Positions 2,628 to 14,011 of a stretch of 14,011 nucleotides of DNA are shown one piece after another. The stretch's first letter is position 1. Every line of letters starts with the position of its first letter. Source of the stretch: a virus; the UHGV virus genome UHGV-0131161. The stretch is one strand, 5' to 3'. The notes beneath the pieces were generated by a model. The model was given only the letters and a program-made list of their open reading frames with translations. It had not been told where the DNA came from and ran no database searches. A program made the translations under genes and the position numbers.

Positions 2628-2879
2628 TTATTTTTTTGGTGCATCCTCGTTCTGATACACCGGATCGCTCCCTTTTGGCAACTGGAGGCTTAACTGCCGG
2701 TAGTGCCGTAGCCGTTCCATGAAATAGGCGCGCAGGTTTTCCGGTTGCTCACGGGCCACCTGCTCTGCAATCACAGGTATATTCAGCCGTTCTTTGTAAG
2801 CAACGCCGCTGGCGGCAAGGTCTACGTTCACCTTGTCTCGCTCTTCCTGGCTTTTAGCTGCTATATTTCGATCTGACAT
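2628..2879 (-). CDS. hot: Homolog of DNA polymerase III theta subunit (HolE-like)
   Basis: Core [43 protein letters not shown] aligns with E. coli HolE ([43 protein letters not shown]). GGGAGG sits 6 nt upstream of the ATG at 2879. Position just upstream of humD fits P1 hot. Confidence 0.8.
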
Positions 2880-2910
2880 AAGAACCTCCCGGAGTTAGTG
2901 GATCAGGCAC

Positions 2911-3267
2911 ATGCACAATAACGTTCTCAATGTTAGCCGTTCAATTCAGACAATCAGAGACTGCACCAGTGTGGTGGCATCAATCCCATTGCGAAATAGC
3001 ATAGACGAACTGCAAATTCGTGTATTGAACCTGAATCATGCCAATGCAATTAAGCAATTGCGCTTTATTTTGACGCTTAAAAGTGAAGCAGAGGGGGTAA
3101 AGCACAGCGTAAAAGTGTTTTCTGAGGCCATTCTGCTTAATGGGAAGCTCCGGCATCTGGTAAGGCCAGAACGTCAATATCCTGACGTCCTGGCTCGTGA
3201 AAAATACCTTCTTTCCGAAGTTCAAGATAAGGTGATCGATTTCGTTAAATCTCATCCCCTGCATTGA
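2911..3267 (+). CDS. Hypothetical protein (118 aa); the only plausible plus-strand gene, strand assignment uncertain
   Basis: AT-rich segment; the plus-frame product has ordinary composition with several rare codons (AGA, ATA, CGA, AGG, CGG). A competing antisense ORF (2980..3264, minus) cannot be excluded. Only 31 bp separate its ATG from the hot start and there is no clear RBS. Confidence 0.3.
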   Translation: MHNNVLNVSRSIQTIRDCTSVVASIPLRNSIDELQIRVLNLNHANAIKQLRFILTLKSEAEGVKHSVKVFSEAILLNGKLRHLVRPERQYPDVLAREKYLLSEVQDKVIDFVKSHPLH

Positions 3268-3306
3268 GAGCAGGTGTTCCTCTTTGTAACAAAGATGCCA
3301 CCAGCA

Positions 3307-3573
3307 TTATGGTTCGCATTTCCAAATGGTGTTCTGAACGCCCGTGCCGGGCGCGAGATGTGGATTAGCGTTCGCGCTATGCTGATATACGGCTTTAGAC
3401 TTTCCATATTGCTGACAGGCTTTATCTGCGGTTTTTTGCAGACTATCCAGCCCATACCAGCCATCTGACTGGATGCTTACCTTTTCACCGTCGTTGTATT
3501 GCACCATTGCACACCCAGACATAGCCAAGATCGCGCCGACAATAACGCTTTTCCATAAAACTCTATGCAACAT
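3307..3573 (-). CDS. Small secreted protein or lipoprotein candidate (88 aa)
   Basis: From the ATG at 3573 (GAGGGG upstream): MLHRVLWKSVIVGAILAMSGC..., a basic N-region, hydrophobic core and a Cys in lipobox-like context (AMSGC; Met at -3 is atypical). The track start at 3579 is an upstream TTG. Confidence 0.5.
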   Translation of the reverse strand: MLHRVLWKSVIVGAILAMSGCAMVQYNDGEKVSIQSDGWYGLDSLQKTADKACQQYGKSKAVYQHSANANPHLAPGTGVQNTIWKCEP

Positions 3574-3578
3574 ATACA

Positions 3579-3608
3579 AAAATCCCCTCTGTGAATTGAG
3601 GGGATTTT
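3579..3608 (-). terminator. Perfect 11-bp-stem hairpin ending the long minus-strand operon, overlapping the RBS of the following gene
   Basis: AAAATCCCCTC (3579-3589), 8-nt loop, GAGGGGATTTT (3598-3608). On the minus strand the stem is followed by a T-run (ATTTTTGTAT). The GAGGGG arm doubles as the RBS of the 3307..3573 gene. Confidence 0.5.
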
Positions 3609-3682
3609 AGCATGGTGATCAGATATCAGCTTTATTCAGAATTTTACCCACCAGCTATGTGATTTTTTCTGACAGGTCATCT

Positions 3683-4489
3683 TTAATACTTGCACTTATG
3701 ACATGCGAATCTCCACTGTTCATGGTCAAAGCACCAGAATACTTCCCTGGGCAGATTGTGTTTTTTCATTTGCGCCAGCACGTGCGTTGGCGTATTTGCG
3801 GGGATTTCTGGTAGCAAAGCCTTAGCCATTTCATGAATTAACATAGCATCTATTACCCCAAGCGTATGCCCAGCCTTAATCTTTAATGCGGTTTCAAGAT
3901 GGCCCCTTTCCAGAGTTGTACTCACTCTTGGCTTCGGCGCTTGTGGATGGGTATCCAGACGGTTGCCAGATTCATAGGCTACCCGCAGCCAGTGCATGAA
4001 TGTTTCCGTAGACACACAACCGCAGTCCTGGTCGATTTTTTCGTGTTGCTGCCCCAGCCACTGCTCAAAATTTAACTTGTTGGATGCTTCTAGAGCCTCT
4101 TCGTATTGTTTGCGCGAAATTATTTCCGTGTATTCCTCACGATCAAGGTTACTTATCGGGAGTCTGACCTCAAGGCAAAAATGGCGTCCTCGCAGGCTTT
4201 TTGCCGGGTCAGAGCCAAAAGCAAAGAGGCCATATGATGGTTCATACTCGTCCTCTCTAACCATGCGACAATCGAGCACATCATCAGGCCACCCTCCACG
4301 CTTTGGCAGCTCCTGCACCAATAAGTCAATCAGCTTTATTGTTTCACCATCCTTGCAGGTTGCTAACGCTATTTTGGCAAGCTCCAACACCTCATCTGCC
4401 GTATATCCAGCACCGTGACCATACATTTCTATTCGTGCGATAATGTCCAATAAACGAGTTTTAGTTATCCTCATATCGCTCACCATCAT
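3683..4489 (-). CDS. Hypothetical protein (268 aa), last gene of the five-gene coupled block
   Basis: Start reassigned to the ATG at 4489, which overlaps the stop of the upstream membrane-protein gene (ATGA); the track's 4588 start would overlap that gene by about 100 nt. No motif recognised. Confidence 0.6.
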   Translation of the reverse strand: MMVSDMRITKTRLLDIIARIEMYGHGAGYTADEVLELAKIALATCKDGETIKLIDLLVQELPKRGGWPDDVLDCRMVREDEYEPSYGLFAFGSDPAKSLRGRHFCLEVRLPISNLDREEYTEIISRKQYEEALEASNKLNFEQWLGQQHEKIDQDCGCVSTETFMHWLRVAYESGNRLDTHPQAPKPRVSTTLERGHLETALKIKAGHTLGVIDAMLIHEMAKALLPEIPANTPTHVLAQMKKHNLPREVFWCFDHEQWRFACHKCKY

Positions 4490-4794
4490 AGATACACAAA
4501 AACCAAAACCCAAAGGCAGGCGACAGTAGGGACGGTAAAATCCTGCAAGCTCGCCATATCCCATACGCGTGGATCGAAACCGCCCCACCAGGGCATATTG
4601 CTGCGCTTACCGTTCCCGAACTTGTTTATCCATCGGTATTCAGCCTGGGTGTGTTCACGCGCAATAAAGAACGTGATCCCTGCTATCGCTCCATAAATCC
4701 AGTTGCCAGTTAATGTGCCCATAAGCACCTGAGCTAAAACGGCACAAGCCGCATGTAATAATGGGGTAATATCAAAGGACTTATTATTTTTCAT
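4486..4794 (-). CDS. Small membrane protein (102 aa), predicted transmembrane segments
   Basis: Hydrophobic stretches LLHAACAVLAQVLMGTLTGNWIYGAIAGITFFIA and VPTVACLWVLVFVYL. Stop overlaps the start of the 268-aa gene (ATGA). Confidence 0.6.
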   Translation of the reverse strand: MKNNKSFDITPLLHAACAVLAQVLMGTLTGNWIYGAIAGITFFIAREHTQAEYRWINKFGNGKRSNMPWWGGFDPRVWDMASLQDFTVPTVACLWVLVFVYL

Positions 4795-5170
4795 TGCGTG
4801 ACATCCTCTTCCATTTCTTTTCGCATTCCTTAGTCCAATTTTTAATGTTCATTTTGGCAATGTCAGTCATTCCATCGCCTAAGAAATACTTTTTCCGGTA
4901 TGTCTTACACTTAAACCACACTACAATAGCCACCAACCAGAAAATAAAAGGCCATACAGCAATGCCAACGACAGCCGCGATAAAGCCCAATAGCCATAAA
5001 TGAAGCTCTCCTACTTCTGTTTCAGGCAATATCTTTAAAGAGTTAAACAGCAGACTGAACGAATGGTCGTATGCAGTGGCGGTATAAGACATGCAATCCA
5101 TATAATTAAAATCATAGCCTGCGGCTGCCGCCCATAATGGGCGGTCAAGAAAATGTTTGAATGTCATCAT
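4784..5170 (-). CDS. Membrane protein (128 aa) with a long hydrophobic segment and Lys-rich C-terminus
   Basis: Segment LWLLGFIAAVVGIAVWPFIFWLVAIVVWF followed by a KK-rich tail. Its start is 7 nt after the upstream stop and its 3' end overlaps the next gene by 11 nt. Confidence 0.6.
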   Translation of the reverse strand: MMTFKHFLDRPLWAAAAGYDFNYMDCMSYTATAYDHSFSLLFNSLKILPETEVGELHLWLLGFIAAVVGIAVWPFIFWLVAIVVWFKCKTYRKKYFLGDGMTDIAKMNIKNWTKECEKKWKRMSRNEK

Positions 5171-5176
5171 ATGAAT

Positions 5177-5470
5177 TTAAGGTTCAGACCAGTTATCTTC
5201 AATAACAATACTTAATCTCTGTAGCCATTCTGCTAATTTCAGCATTGCTTCTCTTTCGCTTAACCCGCGCGGGAAATCATCAAGCGATATTGTTGGCTTG
5301 AAGTTCCCGAAATTATCCATTTCAACGGTCAGATTTTGCTCCAGCACGGTATTCCTTGCGCGACTATTGTGCCGAAGCAAATATACTGAATGTGATTCAT
5401 TGGTTTTGTGGTCGAACGTATATTCGGTAAGTATCATCTGGCTTTTGCCATGACTATTACCTCTCCACAT
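5177..5470 (-). CDS. Hypothetical soluble protein (97 aa)
   Basis: Start reassigned to the ATG at 5470 (GAGGT 5 nt upstream), immediately after the stop of the 40-aa peptide ORF. The track's longer form from 5566 would overlap that ORF. Confidence 0.55.
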   Translation of the reverse strand: MWRGNSHGKSQMILTEYTFDHKTNESHSVYLLRHNSRARNTVLEQNLTVEMDNFGNFKPTISLDDFPRGLSEREAMLKLAEWLQRLSIVIEDNWSEP

Positions 5471-5477
5471 ACTTACC

Positions 5478-5600
5478 TCACTTAATAAAACAACTCCATG
5501 CGTAGTTGATGATTTTTTCCCACGCAATATAAATCTGCACTCCGGCAGTAAAACCAAAGCCAACAATTGCTGAAAAAATCAAAATATTTACTTTTGACAT
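5478..5600 (-). CDS. Small hydrophobic peptide (40 aa), not in the ORF track
   Basis: ATG at 5600 to TGA at 5478-5480 gives MSKVNILIFSAIVGFGFTAGVQIYIAWEKIINYAWSCFIK, with a single predicted transmembrane helix. Its stop lies 8 nt before the next start. Found by manual translation. Confidence 0.4.
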   Translation of the reverse strand: MSKVNILIFSAIVGFGFTAGVQIYIAWEKIINYAWSCFIK

Positions 5601-5648
5601 TATAAAATTTCTCTCGGTGCAGTAGGTGATAGCACCATAATTGATAAT

Positions 5649-5882
5649 TTAGTGAGTTAGCAGTTCCATTTTTTTGATGATTTCCGCATGAGCATCATCG
5701 TTATCAACACTTAGCTCGTTTAATGCTTCTCGCACTACATCAACCTCTTCAGGCTGAAGGAAGTCGTCGCGGTAATCACCAAATAGAACCGAAACCAGCC
5801 TGCCACCAGCAACATCAAGATTGGCGCTAACAGGTGGCTCTTTGCCATCCTCAAATTCGACTACAAAAGTTAATTTTCCCAT
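5649..5882 (-). CDS. Hypothetical acidic protein (77 aa)
   Basis: ATG at 5882 with a strong RBS (AGGGGG) that overlaps the stop of the 27-aa peptide ORF. The track start at 5900 is a TTG. Product MGKLTFVVEFEDGKEPPV.... Confidence 0.6.
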   Translation of the reverse strand: MGKLTFVVEFEDGKEPPVSANLDVAGGRLVSVLFGDYRDDFLQPEEVDVVREALNELSVDNDDAHAEIIKKMELLTH

Positions 5883-5884
5883 CG

Positions 5885-5968
5885 TTACCCCCTGCGACAA
5901 ATTGAATACACAACCAGTGCTACCGCCATTGCAATTCCGACCGTGGTGAATGCCTCAGGCCAGCTCAT
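5885..5968 (-). CDS. Small hydrophobic peptide (27 aa), not in the ORF track
   Basis: ATG at 5968 overlaps the DUF551 gene stop (ATGA), with GGAGG 6 nt upstream. Product MSWPEAFTTVGIAMAVALVVYSICRRG. Its TAA lies inside the RBS of the next gene. Confidence 0.4.
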   Translation of the reverse strand: MSWPEAFTTVGIAMAVALVVYSICRRG

Positions 5969-6669
5969 TGATCGACCTCCTGCGGCGGTTCTGGTAGCGA
6001 CATCCAGTCGGTTACATTGCGACTCTGTGTTTCGAAAAATTCATCACCATTGCGGACAATATCGAAAAACTCTCCGTCTCGATATTGCGCATAAAGAACG
6101 AATGCGCCATCACATAAAATAATTACGTGCTGACCATCCTCTGGCATTCGCTCACTACAGCTTATCCAACCATCCGGAGTTACCGGATAGTTGCCATTCA
6201 CAAGGTCAGCTCGAACATATAGCGTGTCATCATGGTGCTGATTGTGGCTGCACCACGTTAATTCGCTTAACTCGCCATCTTCTGGCCATACTCCAGCTGT
6301 TTGCAGCCAGATATGGGCTGGCGCATCTTGGCAAGGTGTATTAACTGGCAACTTGTAAGTTTGGCTTACAGGTTGGCTACCCTGAAGCATGGCAGCGTGG
6401 CAGGCATCCTCTACGCCCTTTACTGCATCTGCGCAGTAGTTATAGCGATTGCATTCCACTAATTTCCGTTTGAGTTTTTCAATTGCTTGCGCGACATCAG
6501 CCTGTATTTCCGGAACTGGCGGTTCTGCCCGGCCTTTCCAGCCTTCCCACATGGCAGCCATCATCACGAACCAAGCGTTTCCACAGCCATCTTTTTTGTT
6601 ATCAAAGAACCAGTCAGCGAACTCTAGGCTCATGCCATTTTGTTCTGCTATTTCATATCGATTATCCAT
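5965..6669 (-). CDS. DUF551-domain phage protein (234 aa)
   Basis: C-terminal GWISCSERMPEDGQHVIIL...DGEFFDI...VTDWMSLPEPPQ matches the DUF551 signature as I recall it (W-I-S-x-E-R-L-P-E ... T-H-W-M-P-L-P-E-P-P). Confidence 0.7.
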   Translation of the reverse strand: MDNRYEIAEQNGMSLEFADWFFDNKKDGCGNAWFVMMAAMWEGWKGRAEPPVPEIQADVAQAIEKLKRKLVECNRYNYCADAVKGVEDACHAAMLQGSQPVSQTYKLPVNTPCQDAPAHIWLQTAGVWPEDGELSELTWCSHNQHHDDTLYVRADLVNGNYPVTPDGWISCSERMPEDGQHVIILCDGAFVLYAQYRDGEFFDIVRNGDEFFETQSRNVTDWMSLPEPPQEVDQ

Positions 6670-7033
6670 TGTTCTTCTCCTTGTTTAGCATGGCAGCACG
6701 GCAGGCATTCCAGCCTCTCACCTCTGCAATAGCGGCAACAGCATCGACCGCGTACATTTTAAGAGGGTTGGGCATTGGTTTTTCTTCAGGTACTACTGGC
6801 ACTGGAGTGGCGGCATAAACAGGAATAACGTCCGCTTGCTCTTTATTGCTTTCATCCGTTAAAGCCCAGAATAATTTCCCGGCAGGATGTTTGAAAATAT
6901 AAGCAACTGGATCTGCTTCCAGCGATGCCAGTGCAATTTCATAAGCACGGCGCTCAATATTGTCTCGAACGTCCAAGCTGCCTATGCGCTCTTTGATTTC
7001 TTTAATCAGTTCTTTGTCGGTAAAAGTGGTCAT
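6662..7033 (-). CDS. Hypothetical phage protein (123 aa) sharing a short motif with the adjacent DUF551 gene
   Basis: C-terminal GWNACRAAML parallels ACHAAML in the DUF551 protein, with a 20-nt DNA match. ATG at 7033 lies 1 nt after the Ea22-like gene stop. Confidence 0.6.
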   Translation of the reverse strand: MTTFTDKELIKEIKERIGSLDVRDNIERRAYEIALASLEADPVAYIFKHPAGKLFWALTDESNKEQADVIPVYAATPVPVVPEEKPMPNPLKMYAVDAVAAIAEVRGWNACRAAMLNKEKNNG

Positions 7034-7034
7034 G

Positions 7035-7787
7035 TCACTCTCCTTTGATGCGAATGCCAGCGTCAGACATCATATGCAGATACTCAACTGCATCCTGAAC
7101 CCATTGACCGCCAATCCCGTAATAGCGATGCGTAATGATGTCGATAGTTACTAACGGGTCTTGTTCGATTAACTTCCGCAGAAACTCTTCCAGGTCACCA
7201 GTGCAGTGCTTGATGACAGGAGTTTTCCCAGGATGGCGAACAACAAGAAACTGATTTCCGACTTCACGGACTTCGTTGCTTTCCAGTTCTGCAATGCGCT
7301 TCTCTGAGGCTTCCAGCTTCTCGCGCATATCGTCAACGTACTCGACCAGAGAACCGCCAGCAGGAATTTCGCACTCCTCGACCAGTTGGAAGTAGATATC
7401 AGCTGCGGCCCGTGTGTTGCTATGCCTAGCGTCGCCCATCTCACCTTCACGAAGAGCATCGCGTTCGGCGGTAAGATTGGCTATTTTGCTGTCTTTGCCT
7501 TCCAGCTCAACGCGCAGCCTCCCAACCGTAAGCGCAATATCCTCGTTCTCCTGGTCGCGTGATTTGATGTATTGCTGGTTTCTTTCCCGTTCATCCAGTA
7601 GTGCCAGCACGGTTTCTGGTCCGGCCAGAAATTTGAAGGCGTTGAGCGCATCAATATCCACACCGTAATCTTTAAGTTCCTGTTCACTTAACAAATCATC
7701 ATCAACTGGCAACATTAACAGGCGTTCCATTGCCGGAATTGCACGTTCTGCCGCCTCACGCAGTGCCTGATAGTCAATCTTGCTCAT
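7035..7787 (-). CDS. Ead/Ea22-like family protein (250 aa), paralog 2
   Basis: N-terminus MSKIDYQALREAAERA..., which I associate with lambdoid Ea22-like early accessory proteins; central coiled-coil-like region. Family assignment from memory. Confidence 0.6.
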   Translation of the reverse strand: MSKIDYQALREAAERAIPAMERLLMLPVDDDLLSEQELKDYGVDIDALNAFKFLAGPETVLALLDERERNQQYIKSRDQENEDIALTVGRLRVELEGKDSKIANLTAERDALREGEMGDARHSNTRAAADIYFQLVEECEIPAGGSLVEYVDDMREKLEASEKRIAELESNEVREVGNQFLVVRHPGKTPVIKHCTGDLEEFLRKLIEQDPLVTIDIITHRYYGIGGQWVQDAVEYLHMMSDAGIRIKGE

Positions 7788-7788
7788 G

Positions 7789-8088
7789 TCACATCACCCT
7801 GAATCCGTTGCATTTACGTAAGAAATCGCAGATATAGCCCTTCATTTTTTCATGCCAATCTCGATCATTCCCATTGCACCAACCATCAGGTGGAGTCCAG
7901 TTTTCTATCAGAGCAGCCATTTTCTTTGCTTTCGCCGGAGTAGCTGTTGCGGTATCGCAGTAATGACGAGTGTCAACCAACGCATCCATACCATCGATAT
8001 CAAGTACGCAAAACCATGTGTGATTCGGCATTTCAACAGATGGTATTTGTTGCCCACGTCGACGTTTATCAATAAGACATACAGTCAC
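7789..8088 (-). CDS. Hypothetical protein (99 aa) between the two Ea22-like genes
   Basis: GTG start at 8088 with a strong RBS (AAGGAGG 7 nt upstream), overlapping the upstream stop (GTGA). Its stop lies 1 nt before the next ATG. Confidence 0.55.
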   Translation of the reverse strand: MTVCLIDKRRRGQQIPSVEMPNHTWFCVLDIDGMDALVDTRHYCDTATATPAKAKKMAALIENWTPPDGWCNGNDRDWHEKMKGYICDFLRKCNGFRVM

Positions 8089-8723
8089 TGGTTGCCTCCT
8101 TTGCGAAGCTGTTCAGCAATACTTACGCATATCTCTGCGCCTCTAATCAGCCCCGGAACGTTCTTGTTTGGCCCAACTTCACCATCAACAAAATCAATCA
8201 TCGCGTTACGAGCCATATCCACGCCCTGCGCCCGTACTTCAGCCAGGAAAGCATCGGTGGCTGGAATGGGCTTTTGTGGTGATATAGCAATGCGAATTGT
8301 CTCAAGGTCTGGATCTGTTTCCGCTGCTGGCACCTTGATATAACCCATCTGCACCCCATTCATGATGAACCTGCGACGGTCATCACATATCGCCTTTAGC
8401 CCCGCATTCTCGGCCACCAGCGCCGCGAGATTAGTCTCAAGCTCTGCAATTCGACACATAGCATCAATATTTGTGTCCTCCAGGCACTTAATTTCACCAA
8501 GCAGCTCCAGTGCAACCTTTGGGTTGAACGCGGCAACATGACGAGCGTTGTTCTCTGCATTTTTCTGTCCATCAAAGCCGGTCCATTTGATAACGTCTTC
8601 ACATCGTTCATCACCGGGCGTGTGCACCGCATAAGTACCAGTATCCGTCGAAATAAATGCGACCCATTCGTCTGGTGTTGCCTTTTCTGCCGCCTCACGC
8701 AGTACCTGATAGTCAATTGTCAT
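8085..8723 (-). CDS. Ead/Ea22-like family protein (212 aa), paralog 1
   Basis: Start reassigned to the ATG at 8723 (MTIDYQVLREAAEKATPDEW...), which overlaps the upstream stop (ATGA) and has GAAGGA upstream. Shares a 33-nt near-identical 5' segment with paralog 2. Confidence 0.6.
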   Translation of the reverse strand: MTIDYQVLREAAEKATPDEWVAFISTDTGTYAVHTPGDERCEDVIKWTGFDGQKNAENNARHVAAFNPKVALELLGEIKCLEDTNIDAMCRIAELETNLAALVAENAGLKAICDDRRRFIMNGVQMGYIKVPAAETDPDLETIRIAISPQKPIPATDAFLAEVRAQGVDMARNAMIDFVDGEVGPNKNVPGLIRGAEICVSIAEQLRKGGNQ

Positions 8724-9364
8724 TCTCGCCATCCTTCACAGTTGTAATCACTACAGCCTTCAAAATCATATGGGCTGTACTGCCAGGTTATTTTTCCGCA
8801 ATGCGGACAATTCCAACGCACCTTCCCGCTTCGCGACTTCTTTCTTCTGTTCTGCTCTTTCAACCAGTCAGGCATGACCAAACCTGCGCCCTGAACCATT
8901 GTTCTGCGGTTAAAGTTATTGATATTGAACGTCCGACGCTTTGCTGAATCAGCAATGGAAAATGGCAACCAAACTATTCCTGGTTCGTTTTTGTTGGCGA
9001 CGCTAAAGATGGTCGCTTTACTGAAGTCATCTGTTGGCAATCCACCGTGTTGAAGCCAGTAAACATCGTTGCCGTTCCAGCTACCTTTTTTGTAGGCCAC
9101 ATACGCAGTGCAATCTGACTCAATCAGGCTTTCTGTAGGGATGTACTGGCAATCAACGTGCCACACAGCCATTGCATCCACACTATCGGCACAAACAGGC
9201 TGATCGATATCTCGCCCACAATTCCAGGCTTTTTGGGCTTCTTCCAGCGTGTAAACATGAGCGCGATCGATATCAGAACTGTAACCATTGCCGTTATGGC
9301 AATGGAATGAAGCGTTATTACCCACAGTTTCACGCAAGCACATCATGTAAAAGCGGTTATTCAC
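8720..9364 (-). CDS. Hypothetical protein (214 aa) with a C-terminal Cys cluster
   Basis: C-terminal NCPHCGK...CSDYNC (CxxC-N15-CxxxxC), a possible zinc ribbon. Coupled to flanking genes by overlaps. Confidence 0.55.
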   Translation of the reverse strand: MNNRFYMMCLRETVGNNASFHCHNGNGYSSDIDRAHVYTLEEAQKAWNCGRDIDQPVCADSVDAMAVWHVDCQYIPTESLIESDCTAYVAYKKGSWNGNDVYWLQHGGLPTDDFSKATIFSVANKNEPGIVWLPFSIADSAKRRTFNINNFNRRTMVQGAGLVMPDWLKEQNRRKKSRSGKVRWNCPHCGKITWQYSPYDFEGCSDYNCEGWRE

Positions 9365-9572
9365 TGGTCGCCTCCCAGCAAATTTGTCTTATATAAGAAC
9401 TGTTAACGCGCTTTACTTTCCCGTCGAACTCCAGTTTCTTTAGACGACGCAAAACGTATGCCGTTTTGAGTGTGCGATATTTATCCCTAAGCCAGTTGGT
9501 CACGACGTAAGTCATACAGCGCCCGTGTTCTTCCAACACCCGAACTATTTCTTCGTCGGTTGGCTTGCTCAT
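9357..9572 (-). CDS. Small basic hypothetical protein (71 aa), possible DNA-binding fold
   Basis: Basic product (…LRRLKKLEFDGKVKRV…); ATGA overlap with the upstream gene. Fold assignment is speculative. Confidence 0.5.
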   Translation of the reverse strand: MSKPTDEEIVRVLEEHGRCMTYVVTNWLRDKYRTLKTAYVLRRLKKLEFDGKVKRVNSSYIRQICWEATSE

Positions 9573-9790
9573 TTTGTCGCTCCTTCAGCTTTCTCTACTT
9601 TCGCTGCCATGATTTCCAGCTTTTGTGCTGCCGATACCGCTAACCTGTGAAATTCTTCATCTGTTTCAACTGGAATTGGTACAAACCTGACACCAATTTG
9701 AGCAAGGCTATGCGCCATTTCGAGACTTGCTCTTAACTCTGCTGGGGATGCTTTATTCAGGCCGACTTCCTCACAAATAACTGATTGCAT
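9569..9790 (-). CDS. Small hypothetical phage protein (73 aa)
   Basis: ORF in the coupled gene train; no motif recognised. Confidence 0.5.
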   Translation of the reverse strand: MQSVICEEVGLNKASPAELRASLEMAHSLAQIGVRFVPIPVETDEEFHRLAVSAAQKLEIMAAKVEKAEGATK

Positions 9791-9799
9791 ACGCTCGCC

Positions 9800-10525
9800 C
9801 TACTGAATACGCTCAAACTCGATTACCCAAACCCAGGGATTAGCACTCCAGCTTTCTTCGCCGTAGATGGACTCCCACAGACGCTGGAACGCAACCTTTG
9901 CCATTGCGAAGTCCCCATTGGGAGTAAGGAATGTTCCCGGGTAATCAGGAAGCAAACTTCCAGCAGGCGGAACGCCCTCAGCCCCTGCATCGCATTCGCT
10001 GATATCGTTCAACCGCTCAACGCGCACGTTGGTAATTTCCAACAGAATGCGTGATGCCCATCGCGGCATGTGAATTGATGGACGCCACCCACCATCAAAC
10101 TTTTCATTCACAGTGTGAGGTTTCCAGTCGGCATCATCGGGTATCGACCATAAGCCGTAATCACCAGGCTTTTGCTCACAACTGGCCCGATAAATCCTTG
10201 CTGCGCTCTTCTCATCGCCACGACAAAGGTTGTCGTTCCAGTCCACACTGCAACCATCCTCATTGCCTAATATCGCCCATGTTTCACGAACCCAAATTCG
10301 ATCGCCGACGATACCAAAGGGGCAATTGAAAACACTGCTTACACCATCAGCCCCGTACCACTGAAAACCTGCACCAATTTTTCTAACCATCACTGGTGCT
10401 TCTGGACCAACTTCCGCAGGCTGATTTTTCATTATCCGCCGCGTCTGCGTTTTCCTTCCTTCGAGGATGGCCCGGACCATCTCATCGTTGAAAATCATGC
10501 CGCGCTCTTTCACTTCGCCTTTCAT
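9800..10525 (-). CDS. Putative ASCH/PUA-like domain phage protein (241 aa)
   Basis: N-terminal MIFNDEMVRAILEGRKTQTRR resembles the conserved start of phage ASCH-domain proteins as I recall it. ATG at 10525 lies 7 nt after the stop of the 28-aa peptide ORF. Confidence 0.55.
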   Translation of the reverse strand: MKGEVKERGMIFNDEMVRAILEGRKTQTRRIMKNQPAEVGPEAPVMVRKIGAGFQWYGADGVSSVFNCPFGIVGDRIWVRETWAILGNEDGCSVDWNDNLCRGDEKSAARIYRASCEQKPGDYGLWSIPDDADWKPHTVNEKFDGGWRPSIHMPRWASRILLEITNVRVERLNDISECDAGAEGVPPAGSLLPDYPGTFLTPNGDFAMAKVAFQRLWESIYGEESWSANPWVWVIEFERIQ

Positions 10526-10534
10526 GCATCCCCC

Positions 10535-10621
10535 TTACCCATGCGCGACGATGCCGCCAAAAGTGATAGAGAACAGCCAGAAATAGATCGCGGCCATAAT
10601 GATTTTGAATGCCGTGTTCAT
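10535..10621 (-). CDS. Small hydrophobic peptide (28 aa), first ORF of the long operon; not in the ORF track
   Basis: ATG at 10621 with AGGAG 8 nt upstream; product MNTAFKIIMAAIYFWLFSITFGGIVAHG; TAA at 10535-10537. Confidence 0.4.
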   Translation of the reverse strand: MNTAFKIIMAAIYFWLFSITFGGIVAHG

Positions 10622-10648
10622 ATTTTCAGCTCCTGTGATTGATTAGAT

Positions 10649-10680
10649 ACATGCCGCGCCTTGCGGCATGTTTTTATTTT
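10649..10680 (+). terminator. Rho-independent terminator-like hairpin, U-tract on the plus strand
   Basis: ACATGCCGC (10649-10657), loop GCCTT, GCGGCATGT (10663-10671), then TTTTATTTT (10672-10680). The U-tract is on the plus side even though the flanking genes are on the minus strand. Confidence 0.5.
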
Positions 10681-10703
10681 CACTTTCCCTGCTTTAAAAA
10701 TCA

Positions 10704-10720
10704 AGATTTATTAGAGCAAT
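10704..10720 (-). promoter_or_regulatory. P1 C1-repressor operator-like site (16/17 to consensus)
   Basis: Minus-strand ATTGCTCTAATAAATCT against the recalled consensus ATTGCTCTAATAAATTT. Overlaps the stop of the HAD phosphatase gene and lies about 85 nt upstream of the first ORF of the long operon. Confidence 0.5.
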
Positions 10721-11226
10721 TACTGCTGATGAAGAAGCGCATTTTCATACTCCCTGACCATTAACGTAAGCACGCCGTGTCTCCTGAAAACACGCGCCAC
10801 TTCAATCTTATCTTCCAGCGCGAACGCAATTTTACTTAGACCAATTTTCTTAAGGAGATCAATCTTTGCTGGGCCGTCATTTCTGTCATCGGTGGCAGGG
10901 CGCATAGATAGCAAAGGCTCAGCCCCGTTTGTTACGTACTTCCGCAGCCAAGCTCGTGTTTTATCCCTTGCGATCTCACAGCGCCCGGTTACAAACCAGA
11001 CCGTGTAAACGTTAAATAACTGGCGCACAATATCAATAACTGGAGTTATGGGAGTATCAGTGTCACAGGCGAGATTAAACTCGTTCCAGTCCTTTGTTAA
11101 TGCACCTTTACCTGGTGGCGGAAGCAAATGCAGTCTGTCTTCCGTTGCCTCCGATATTGTTCCATCAATATCGACTATGACGATATACGGACGTTCCTGG
11201 TGTGCGTGTTTATTGAAAATACTCAA
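10720..11226 (-). CDS. HAD-superfamily phosphatase (P1 pap-like acid phosphatase candidate)
   Basis: HAD motif I VDIDGT near the N-terminus (…PYIVIVDIDGTISE…). TTG start at 11226 with a strong RBS (GAGGAGGG); the upstream in-frame stop leaves no ATG option. Confidence 0.65.
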   Translation of the reverse strand: MSIFNKHAHQERPYIVIVDIDGTISEATEDRLHLLPPPGKGALTKDWNEFNLACDTDTPITPVIDIVRQLFNVYTVWFVTGRCEIARDKTRAWLRKYVTNGAEPLLSMRPATDDRNDGPAKIDLLKKIGLSKIAFALEDKIEVARVFRRHGVLTLMVREYENALLHQQ

Positions 11227-11243
11227 ATGCCCTCCTCATTGGA

Positions 11244-11279
11244 CGAAAAAAATGCTGGTGGGACGCACTCCACCAGCAT
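11244..11279 (-). terminator. Rho-independent terminator after the coiled-coil protein gene; stem formed by a Chi octamer and its complement
   Basis: ATGCTGGTGG (11252-11261), loop GACGCACT, CCACCAGCAT (11270-11279). On the minus strand it is followed by TTTTTTT (complement of 11244-11250). Confidence 0.6.
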
Positions 11280-11299
11280 TAAAAGTGACACTGTAACTA

Positions 11300-12562
11300 T
11301 CAGCGAACGTAAATAGTGCCGCCGTTCTCTTTTTCCCATGCGTCGCTACGTGCATAGCAAACATCGAGAAGTCTTCTTGCCGCTGTTTCCTCTAAACCCA
11401 ATTCGACAACCAACTGTTCATGACGGCGGGTAACCACATCAAACAACGTATGCAGCCCTTTAGTTGCCAGTTCATCAATGAATTCCGGTTCGAACGGTAG
11501 CTCTGCATCTGCCAACATAACCTCTTGCGCCCACTCGACACGGCGGACCAGTTCCGGGCGGCGGCTTTCCATCTCTTTACAGATCAATTCATGGAAGAAC
11601 TCTACCCAACCTTCCGGCTGGAACTCGCGGAAAATGGCCAGCGGCTGGAAGTTTGGCATCAACCATTCGTTGATTCGGATATCAATGGCATAGCCCATGT
11701 CACAGCAGAACTGATAAGCAAAGTCCAGCTTAGAAACGATATAAGGGCGCTCGTTATTGAACTCTTTAGGCGATGAGATCCCATAAGCCAGGAGGCGCGG
11801 GAAGAAGGATATTTGCCCTAACGTCGGATGGAGTTTACTTGCAGGGAAACGGCGCTCAGTAATGCCATACATTTCCTTCTTGAGTGTCGCAAATTTGGCA
11901 TTTTCATTAACCAGCTCGGTAACCTCTGCTTTTTTATTAGCAAATGCCACGCGCGCCTCACTTGCATCTTTAATGGCCTTTTTGAGCTGTTGGTTAAGGT
12001 CGGCGACCTGCTTACGCAGTTCCTGGCGCTCGCTTTTGGCTTTGTTATAGCGTTTCTCAAGGTTAAAAGGATCAAGTTTCATGATCTCTTTATATTGAGA
12101 TTTTAGCGTTGAAATCTGTGAGTTCCGCAGCTCAACCATCGCAGTCATTTCATTGAGTTTTGTTTCCAACTCAATGCTTATACGTTCGGCATTATCAGCA
12201 CGCTGGTTGGCGTCATGCGTCGCATCGTCGATGGCGTCCTGTTGCTGGCGTTTCAAATGCTCAATTTGCAGCTGAAGCTCTTCAATTTCTTTCCCCTTCA
12301 GACCGAGATCCAGCTGCATATTTTCAGCTGCATCTACCAGGTCGTTATGGCTATCAGCTTCTGCGTTATAAACATCAATAAGCTGTGCGTGAAGCATCTC
12401 AGCTGACTGAACCGCATTATCAAAAAAACGTGCTGTGAGGTCATCACAACTAACGCGGCGTTGCGCGGCTCGGATGTTCTGAATAATGGCCGGGATACCG
12501 GCATTCAGGACGTCAGGGATAGATACATTTTCGATTGATTGGTTTTGTGCTGAAGTGCTCAT
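11300..12562 (-). CDS. Coiled-coil protein (420 aa) with a C-terminal globular region (P1 pmgS-position gene)
   Basis: Residues about 70-230 are heptad-like and rich in E/K/Q/L (…EIEELQLQIEHLKRQQQDAIDDATHDANQRADNAERISIELETKLNEM…). Its start is 1 nt after the stop of the upstream small gene. Confidence 0.65.
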   Translation of the reverse strand: MSTSAQNQSIENVSIPDVLNAGIPAIIQNIRAAQRRVSCDDLTARFFDNAVQSAEMLHAQLIDVYNAEADSHNDLVDAAENMQLDLGLKGKEIEELQLQIEHLKRQQQDAIDDATHDANQRADNAERISIELETKLNEMTAMVELRNSQISTLKSQYKEIMKLDPFNLEKRYNKAKSERQELRKQVADLNQQLKKAIKDASEARVAFANKKAEVTELVNENAKFATLKKEMYGITERRFPASKLHPTLGQISFFPRLLAYGISSPKEFNNERPYIVSKLDFAYQFCCDMGYAIDIRINEWLMPNFQPLAIFREFQPEGWVEFFHELICKEMESRRPELVRRVEWAQEVMLADAELPFEPEFIDELATKGLHTLFDVVTRRHEQLVVELGLEETAARRLLDVCYARSDAWEKENGGTIYVR

Positions 12563-12563
12563 T

Positions 12564-12782
12564 TCAAAGTTCCGTATTAGCTTGTGCTTCGGTCATTTTT
12601 CCTAAGTATGAAGGTGGAAGGACTACGCAATTTGTATCCAGTCCCTCACCAATGGCAGCCTGTAAAATTCTGGCTAAGGTGAGTCTCTTGTTGCGATACC
12701 GGGTGATGACATGCCTGATATCGCCGGACGGTGTAACAAAGGCGATCAGCCAGTAGTGATATTTCCGTCGGAATGGCCACAT
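12564..12782 (-). CDS. Small hypothetical protein (72 aa)
   Basis: ATG at 12782 with AAGGTG 6 nt upstream, directly downstream of the operator/terminator complex. Confidence 0.5.
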   Translation of the reverse strand: MWPFRRKYHYWLIAFVTPSGDIRHVITRYRNKRLTLARILQAAIGEGLDTNCVVLPPSYLGKMTEAQANTEL

Positions 12783-12796
12783 AGTGCACCTTATGG

Positions 12797-12862
12797 ATTG
12801 CTCTAATAAAAAACGTGATGAGTGTACATCACGTTTTAAAAATATGGAATTATTAGAGCAAT
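12797..12862 (-). promoter_or_regulatory. Pair of inverted P1 C1 operator-like sites flanking a 10-bp-stem terminator hairpin
   Basis: Plus-strand ATTGCTCTAATAAAAAA (12797-12813; 14/17) and minus-strand ATTGCTCTAATAATTCC (complement of 12846-12862; 14/17) flank the hairpin AAACGTGATG (12811-12820) / CATCACGTTT (12827-12836). A T-run follows the hairpin on the minus strand. Confidence 0.5.
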
Positions 12863-12863
12863 A

Positions 12864-13565
12864 TTATTCTGATTCTTGCTCAAAAAACGCGCTAATGAGG
12901 GGAAGCCAATCCTCTGACACTTCGCGAGGTCGCGGTTTGCCGTGGAAAAAGATTATTCGGCAGTCCTTTGGTAATGCCCCATTCCCCCTGGAGTAACGCG
13001 CGCTTGCATATTTAGAACCAGGTTCCACAACATCGGCCTTGTAACTTACAAACCATCCCGGATACAGATCCTGAAATGCTGGTGTGTCATCGCCCATAAC
13101 CTTCCGCAAGAACCCCTGATCACCCCAGCACTCAGTAGTAACACAACGAGCAATCCAACCTTCCGGATCTTGCCAGAATGCACTCCAGATGTGCGCTTTT
13201 ACACTATTTGGTATCCACAGAGCACCGCTGCCACGATATTGTGGATGGTAAAAATCCCTAAGCATGGTGAAGCTGGTTGGTGGATTCTCAAGAATTGGGC
13301 GTATATCACCGGCAATAACCGTGTCCAAATCCAGGTAGAAGAGATCATCGGTTATATCCGGTCGAAACAACTCGATTTTCGCCCACCAGCCACGGCACTT
13401 TTGCCACTGGTTGATTAATGGGACAACCTTAACGCCTGGCACATGTAAACTCTTCAGGTCTGTCAGGCAAATAATTTCATAGCCTTTTGGCAGCTGATTA
13501 ACCAGCCACTGCACATCGGAAGCGTTATAGTCGCCACCAGAGCGAAGAACTAAAGCAATCTTCAT
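12864..13565 (-). CDS. Putative DxD-motif nucleotide-sugar transferase-like protein (233 aa; P1 pmgQ-position gene)
   Basis: N-terminal strand MKIALVL and an acidic DLD triad in YLDLDTV near residue 80, reminiscent of GT-A glycosyltransferases; low-confidence fold guess. ATGA overlap with the phosphatase gene stop. Confidence 0.55.
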
Positions 13566-14011
13566 GCTGCACCATCACCTTTCACTTTCATCAATGTCAG
13601 GTTTCCGCAAAATACGGCTCCAGTGTCGATATAATGCTGATTCCAGAATGTCTTCGGGCTTTTCACCGGGGTATGACCAAAGATAAAACGATCTGCTCCC
13701 GAAATTTCGCCACCAATATCATCCATCGAATCACTGATACGCTCGCGCGCCCAGACAACATTGAAAAGCGGTACCTCCTTACCGAATTGATATTCATTAT
13801 CCGGATAGTCGGCATGGGCTATAACAATAGTTTCTCGCCCGGTGTTCAGCTCAATGATATAGGGCAGACGTCTTACCAGCTCCACCAGCGCCCTGGCTAA
13901 TATTTCCTGATCAGTGTCGAGCATGAAGAACCATTGTCCGCCATTCATTAGCCAGTTATTCACGTTGCCATCGGGGCTTAACGCATCAATCATCAGCCGC
14001 TCATGGTTGCC
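13562..14011 (-). CDS. Lambda-type Ser/Thr protein phosphatase (calcineurin-like metallophosphatase), partial; N-terminus beyond window end (P1 ppp-like)
   Basis: Frame stays open to the window edge. Contains GNHE at the edge (revcomp of 13994-14011 gives GNHERL), plus GHTP and IDTGA motifs typical of PPP-family metallophosphatases. Confidence 0.85.

Follow-up and report, generated by a model that had tools for sequence, protein, structure and literature searches.

The five genes at the 3' end of an accessory operon were analysed in UHGV virus genome UHGV-0131161, a DNA stretch of 14,011 nucleotides (nt) that is here called the window. They occupy positions 3683 to 5600 and are tightly packed open reading frames (ORFs), named g1 to g5 in the order of transcription. 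The original prediction was that the five make up one system. The evidence strongly favours a different reading, that this segment is ordinary mosaic cargo: single-gene cassettes, each exchanged independently, at the end of the operon in a hypervariable region. The block is a rare combination of cassettes within a known variable region and is made of known, uncharacterised phage families. As a single system it fails, since g4 stands apart, g2 and g3 are separable, g5 is chimeric and no PADLOC model was matched.

The ORFs themselves are present on the minus strand with the sizes, coordinates and overlaps originally described, including an ATGA at 4486-4489 and an 11-nt overlap at 4784-4794. From g1 to g5 the junctions are +7, +6, -11 and -4 nt, the last being the ATGA. 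Lengths are in amino acids (aa).

g1, 5478..5600, minus strand: 40 aa, one hydrophobic helix (residues 3-26), phrog_5525
g2, 5177..5470, minus strand: 97-aa soluble protein, phrog_1258
g3, 4784..5170, minus strand: 128-aa membrane-anchored protein, phrog_2638
g4, 4486..4794, minus strand: 102-aa three-helix membrane protein, phrog_1443
g5, 3683..4489, minus strand: 268-aa soluble chimeric protein, several PHROGs

Co-occurrence of the five genes

Positions 3600-5700 were used as a Megablast query against phage records, 72,556 plasmids and Escherichia coli genomes, with a coverage threshold of at least 80%. None of 10 phage records and none of the 367 matching E. coli genomes reached this coverage of the block. 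Two of the 72,556 plasmids did so, and 378 plasmids share parts of it.

For each of the genes g4, g3 and g2, up to 80 viral loci surrounding its homologues were taken, and every protein was re-searched in all of them. The 80 viral loci with a g4 homologue all lack g1, g2, g3 and g5. The g3 loci, which are from P1-like elements, have g2 in 80 of 80 cases and g4 in none. Among the P1-like g2 loci, 7 of 75 are without g3 and have other small membrane or exported ORFs there instead. One P1-like contig has g2, g4 and g5 without g3, and the combination of g3 and g4 is found in two P1-like plasmids. In phages of Yersinia, Klebsiella and Proteus, distant g3 homologues lie in early or replication regions and are not accompanied by g2, and the g2 family occurs without g3 in N15, phiKO2, P22-like and HK-type phages. 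Where Proteus phages have both, the two are approximately 5 kb apart and on opposite strands. The five genes therefore do not form a conserved unit; the cassettes assort independently. The original prediction had named a lack of conservation as a unit in advance among the things that would refute it, and the comparison across phages and plasmids found just this lack. A multi-gene defence system would generally be sought as a unit co-occurring across unrelated genomes, and g1 to g5 do not co-occur in this way.

The features that seemed to mark off the block are shared with its surroundings. The tight packing of stops and starts is real, but it is not specific to these five genes: from 13993 to 3683 most junctions of the operon are between -13 and +9 nt, overlapping or abutting genes are the rule, and the gap at the upstream edge of the block is just 48 nt. 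Translational coupling does not delimit the block because such junctions run along the whole operon. A search for internal promoters in the block found 6 sigma-70-like sites where 8.6 are expected from shuffled sequences, which is no evidence for one. The AT-richness seen relative to the flanks holds for g1 (33% GC), g2 (41%) and g3 (40%), but not for g4 and g5, which at 47% match the window (47.4%).

The block had also been taken to end at a perfect 11-bp hairpin. The hairpin is present and looks like an operon terminator, but it is genetically linked to the gene downstream, g6.

Hairpin, 3579..3608, minus strand: perfect 11 bp followed by a T-run; dG -20.3 kcal/mol, z -4.1 against shuffles
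g6, 3307..3573, minus strand: 88-aa predicted lipoprotein (signal peptide ending LAMSG, then C), phrog_7757

An exact copy of the hairpin was found in 32 related loci, and these are precisely the 32 that carry g6. The distance from the hairpin to the g6 ATG is always 5-6 nt, regardless of the upstream g5 variant. It is not the block's own end signal, because it co-occurs with g6 whatever lies upstream. Thus g6 and its hairpin leader are a separate cassette downstream of the block. The 3' arm of the hairpin has GAGGGG 10 nt before the g6 ATG, and a possible extended -10, TGCTAAAAT, overlaps the 5' arm. It is possible, judging from these sequence features, that the hairpin both terminates the upstream operon and occludes the g6 ribosome-binding site.

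The location of the block agrees with variable cargo. The window is from a P1-like (Punavirus, IncY-type) phage-plasmid, a placement confirmed by synteny with Salmonella phage SJ46, P1 isolate MH422554 and plasmid pCFSAN058545_02. A survey of 77 P1-like phage-plasmids counted the stretch from pmgT through hot, lxr and humD among its eight highly variable regions (PMC9603915). The block lies between pmgS and a phosphatase gene on one side and hot-humD-phd-doc on the other, the flanks having been assigned by Pfam and synteny, and so sits in this published variable region 8 (pmgT-humD). Gene content varies here among otherwise conserved P1-like elements, as is seen in the partial plasmid matches and in the differing contents of the g3/g4 slot. 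The suggestion that the block is variable cargo of P1-like phage-plasmids is borne out by the plasmid and phage comparison and by the survey.

Some observations weigh against fully independent cassettes. The genes g2 and g3 are together in approximately 90% of P1-like loci, and g1 also travels with g0, the gene directly upstream of it, the two being jointly present or absent in nearly all related loci. Small two-gene modules (g2-g3 and g0-g1) could exist within the array. Most of the related loci are close relatives (85-95% identity), and their counts reflect shared ancestry rather than independent events. The independence of g2 and g3 rests on few distant homologues. In addition, products that assort independently may still cooperate when they are found together.

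The g4 family and the g2-g5 slot

Evidence that g4 is a separate cassette comes from an alignment in which the window was compared with SJ46, pCFSAN058545_02 and two lambdoid loci. The gene corresponds to a single-gene insertion of approximately 310 nt that separates g3 from g5. Collinearity of the window with SJ46 breaks off near codon 122 of g3 and resumes at the g5 motif IARIEMYGHGAGYTADE, and the likeness to lambdoid g4 genes is limited to the coding sequence. In PLSDB, just seven P1-like plasmids have g4. The alignment shows g4 to be a recent single-gene cassette insertion.

The g4 product had been described as a membrane protein of 102 aa. Its AlphaFold2 (AF2) model does have three helices, with a predicted local distance difference test score of 92, but its hydrophobicity is moderate and only residues 82-100 pass the Kyte-Doolittle transmembrane (TM) cut-off. 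A loop is nearly invariant among the closer homologues: AREHTQAEYRWI..G.GKR.NMPWWGGFD. Down to approximately 30% identity, R46 and E47 are invariant and H14, Q50, A51 and E52 are at least 90% conserved, in a polar loop between membrane helices; for W55, invariance is limited to the closer homologues. A profile search that covered 1.84 billion representatives found a family of 441 at the level of 50%-identity clusters, of about 90-120 aa, with three helices and the loop RE..QAEYRW...W. When 56 distant members were compared with Pfam there were scattered chance hits only. A tblastn match in Ideonella had suggested DUF5658 for g4, and the Pfam scan did not reproduce it.

Elsewhere this family keeps notable company. 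In 77 of the 80 viral loci, the g4 homologue is directly after tail-fibre genes on the same strand, preceded by a side-tail-fibre N-domain gene (PF08400), its 92-99-aa partner and/or an S74-chaperone fibre. In phage 21 the order is stf, orf92 and then the g4 homologue, which is annotated as a 'putative membrane protein'. The homologue follows GpJ in a Comamonas prophage, overlaps the end of the tail-fibre gene in an Aeromonas P2-like prophage and follows pyocin-knob fibres in a Leclercia phage-plasmid. No tail genes are present near g4 or elsewhere in the window.

Two further observations were made on the neighbours of g4 homologues. In lambdoid prophages a conserved acidic protein of 92-99 aa (MKDLTLKF...), for which Pfam has no match, almost always comes before the homologue. 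Its gene follows that of the side tail fibre and is itself followed either by g4 or by a second fibre gene, one with an S74 chaperone domain (L018 3645-5312; L239 3722-4306; L025 4722-5294), and the protein could be a fibre accessory protein. Stand-alone, non-phage g4 homologues are found on megaplasmids of Sphingobium and Novosphingobium (L249 3992-4276; L250 3986-4288), where their neighbours are glycosyl hydrolase and trehalose genes, or else lipopolysaccharide (LPS) glycosyltransferase, outer-membrane beta-barrel and CsgG/HfaB genes.

It is possible, as a refinement of the cassette reading and at rather less than even chance, that g4 by itself is a factor for superinfection exclusion or envelope modification, one that usually accompanies receptor-binding genes and has been captured here. 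Its position after tail-fibre or GpJ genes in four unrelated tail architectures favours this, as do the extreme conservation of the polar loop, a dN/dS of 0.09 and the LPS, polysaccharide and outer-membrane genes beside the sphingomonad homologues. The exclusion genes cor, llp and HK97 gp15 hold comparable moron positions in tail regions, and HK97 gp15 is annotated as a moron product. Like HK97 gp15, Cor of phi80 and N15, and Llp of T5, the members of the g4 family in other phages are small membrane proteins encoded directly after receptor-binding genes; unlike them, g4 in the window is not beside tail genes. Homology to HK97 gp15 was considered for g4 and rejected (hhalign 0.2%). The Tai/Ati tail-assembly-interference systems were considered as a counterpart of morons linked to tail genes; in phi80 the Tai/Ati genes are upstream of the packaging module (PMC11364771).

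In its usual setting g4 is coupled translationally to late tail genes, and this arrangement argues for late expression. Morons in general also tend to be inserted at the end of a tail operon. For both of these reasons a role in exclusion or in the envelope is put forward as a hypothesis. Because g4 is usually co-transcribed with receptor-binding tail-fibre genes elsewhere, it may, by analogy, be an inner-membrane factor that acts at the cell envelope during entry or release, either in the exclusion of incoming phages or in the protection of progeny; this, too, is a tentative suggestion. Somewhat more speculative is the wider proposal that the g4 family represents unrecognised, widespread single-gene envelope factors beside receptor-binding proteins, which would block competitors or modify the receptor or envelope, and that such factors have a dedicated swap site between g2 and g5 in P1-like phage-plasmids.

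The contents of that slot differ across elements: g3; g3 with g4; g4 alone; or a 58-aa peptide with two TM segments together with an exported protein of approximately 70 aa. The last arrangement is found in P1-like loci that have g2 and a g5 variant and are without g3 (L220, positions 5291-5762; L195, L229 and L232). There the two-TM peptide is MKNRKKFWITFLFVCLCG... and the protein of approximately 70 aa, which has a signal peptide, is MKHFLRLAFVLALFAPPAAMA... The slot thus appears to collect small envelope proteins.

On the other side of the slot, g5 has piecewise PHROG matches (3126, 7798, 924, 21459 and 3797). Its segments match PmgT/PmgU of P1, Upf89.5/90.5 of P7 and EaA/Ea22/DUF551 proteins of Shiga toxin (Stx) phages and other phages. 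Pieces of g5 were found by tblastn in 226 phage records, with a coverage of at least 80% in just 3. These matches show g5 to be a chimera of PmgT/PmgU, Upf89.5 and EaA/Ea22-type modules. Its homologues align from residue 6-7, and therefore the real start may be the ATG at 4474, giving 263 aa, rather than the one in the ATGA. Against the Pfam Ead_Ea22 and DUF551 thresholds g5 has no hit, whereas the upstream neighbours pass. Both g5 (3686-4489) and the upstream DUF551 protein (5968-6669) match phrog_60 and phrog_924. At residues 138-176 of g5 there is an EaA/DUF551-type module of about 40 aa, most often common to Stx-phage EaA and Klebsiella jumbo-phage proteins, that resembles a recombination-prone linker.

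Larger groupings and the reality of the ORFs

In the AF2 model, g2 has a four-strand antiparallel sheet and a C-terminal helix. Members of its family include proteins of the N15 gp44/45 region, Gp43 of phiKO2 and P22-like ea-region proteins, and in a P22-like phage the family is found beside EaD. In the g3 protein a conserved N-terminal domain, FKHF.D.P.WAAAAGYDFNYMDC, is followed by a hydrophobic hairpin (residues 52-89) and a basic C-terminal tail, in which the motif W..EC.KKW is conserved. By the positive-inside rule, both soluble ends of g3 are predicted to be cytoplasmic. No activity is assignable to g2, g3 or g5.

A two-gene module of g2 and g3, with a soluble partner and a membrane-anchored effector, has a slim chance of being correct; one model for it is the CptB/CptA (SdhE/YgfX) pair of antitoxin and membrane toxin. 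Here g2 is directly upstream of g3 with a gap of 6 nt, an arrangement like that of CptA/CptB, in which the gene for a soluble protein of about 90 aa immediately precedes that for a membrane protein of about 130 aa with two TM segments. In P1-like elements g2 and g3 occur together in 80 of 80 g3 loci and 68 of 75 g2 loci, and g3 has a sub-threshold match to Pfam Cpta_toxin (E 0.077). However, the remaining 7 of the 75 loci retain g2 and replace g3, distant g3 homologues have no g2 nearby, the g2 family is present without g3 in N15, phiKO2 and P22-like phages, and the pair is not conserved beyond P1-like elements. The predicted fold of g2 also differs from its supposed counterpart. SdhE is a helical bundle; identification of g2 with SdhE was rejected on an hhalign probability of 0.5% and on the predicted beta-sheet and one helix. 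Identification of g3 with YgfX (PF07254) was likewise rejected, hhalign giving 12% probability over the hydrophobic hairpin only and Pfam 13.6 bits against a cut-off of 27.3.

Very unlikely is the original prediction of one uncharacterised five-gene system for superinfection exclusion or abortive infection, with membrane components and a cytoplasmic partner. The tight stop/start coupling, the presence of three small membrane proteins and two soluble ones among the products and the location in prophage-plasmid accessory cargo would suit it. It is contradicted by the co-occurrence data and the lack of conservation as a unit, and g4 is a late single-gene insertion from a family linked to tail fibres. 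The chimeric nature of g5 also counts against it, as does coupling being a property of the whole operon. Searches with the PADLOC defence hidden Markov models gave no hits at E<=1 for the five proteins and their neighbours. A part in superinfection exclusion would be conceivable for genes acting singly, chiefly g4.

In one respect the first description of the products was sound: none was recognisable. Scans of all five proteins against Pfam and NCBIfam gave nothing above threshold, so that together with PADLOC no characterised family was found, and PDB sequence searches with g2 and g5 found no relative. All five proteins do have PHROG matches, with E values from 3.5e-24 to 3.3e-62 (piecewise for g5), to families of unknown function. 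Median dN/dS against distinct homologues is 0.49 for g1, a value from just 7 comparisons, 0.19 for g2, 0.16 for g3, 0.09 for g4 and 0.21 for g5. Because of the PHROG matches and the dN/dS values, all five are considered genuine coding genes under purifying selection. That some are chance ORFs, especially the very short g1 with its higher dN/dS and 7 informative comparisons, can be dismissed almost entirely, as g1 matches phrog_5525 from end to end (E 3.5e-24) and is retained in 62 of 80 related loci, and g2 to g5 have hundreds of homologues and low dN/dS (0.09-0.21).

The accessory operon and its relatives

The operon runs leftward on the minus strand from approximately 13993 to 3683, with the five-gene block at its 3' end. 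Its upstream part was assigned by Pfam and synteny.

Upstream part of the operon, 5601..13993, minus strand: PmgS-like 420-aa gene, PNKP-type phosphatase, DUF1382, two Ead/Ea22-like genes, DUF7739, DUF551 protein and g0
g0, 5649-5882, minus strand: 77-aa gene directly upstream of g1

Downstream of the block are the 88-aa lipoprotein gene g6, hot (a homologue of DNA polymerase III theta), humD (S24 peptidase) and phd-doc. The hot gene is on the minus strand in the 2628-3267 region of the window, and the lxr gene is absent there. An Upf93.6-like ORF of 118 aa on the plus strand (2911-3267) is read towards the operon, and a small terminator-like hairpin (3258-3274) lies at its end. Upstream of humD, a perfect LexA-box consensus, CTGTATGAATAAACAG, on the minus strand at 2525-2540 overlaps the -10 of the best promoter-like site (2539-2568). 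This fits SOS control of humD, the argument being one of position and not of count, since the same pattern occurs in 25 of 200 shuffles. The P1-like Logan contig with g2-g4-g5 (L246, 3091-8773) is a differently organised relative. Its humD is not followed by phd-doc; the genes after humD encode a Tad2-like protein, a dUTPase and a phage integrase, and then a C1-type repressor of P7/P1.

The block resembles the variable region of P1 in its position and as part of a leftward operon of small genes of unknown function, and a segment of g5 is common to P1 PmgT/PmgU and P7 Upf89.5/90.5. These statements on pmg and upf gene order are based on the annotations of SJ46, P1 and P7 and on PMC9603915. In content the block differs almost wholly from reference P1: one g5 module is shared, and g1 to g4 are without a counterpart in AF234172 by tblastn. 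There is also a likeness to the ea and nin genes of lambdoid phages and P22 (Ead/Ea22, EaA, DUF551 and DUF1382), which are small, tightly spaced and modular and recombine freely. The neighbours upstream of the block are genuine Ead_Ea22, DUF1382 and DUF551 genes, and g5 has an EaA/DUF551-type N-terminal module. The difference is that this is the operon of a phage-plasmid, not a PL or PR operon, and that g1 to g5 fall below every Pfam threshold.

The segment would thus be a cassette array of the lambdoid ea/nin/moron type, in which genes are exchanged singly by recombination. The five genes are probably co-transcribed with the upstream Ead/Ea22/DUF551 genes and would be translated by coupling or re-initiation, as in the rest of the operon. 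Each product presumably acts on its own, and the place between g2 and g5 would serve as a swap site for small envelope proteins.

The assembly of variable region 8 from lambdoid-type cassettes is seen here at the resolution of single genes, in a mapped one-gene insertion and in a slot where envelope proteins are recurrently swapped. It is also a caution that coupling and a nearby hairpin do not prove a functional unit in phage accessory operons. The leads of most interest are the swap slot between g2 and g5 and the g4 family as a candidate single-gene exclusion factor. This conserved, uncharacterised membrane family is linked to receptor binding across siphovirus, myovirus and phage-plasmid tails, which leads to a testable hypothesis of exclusion or envelope modification.

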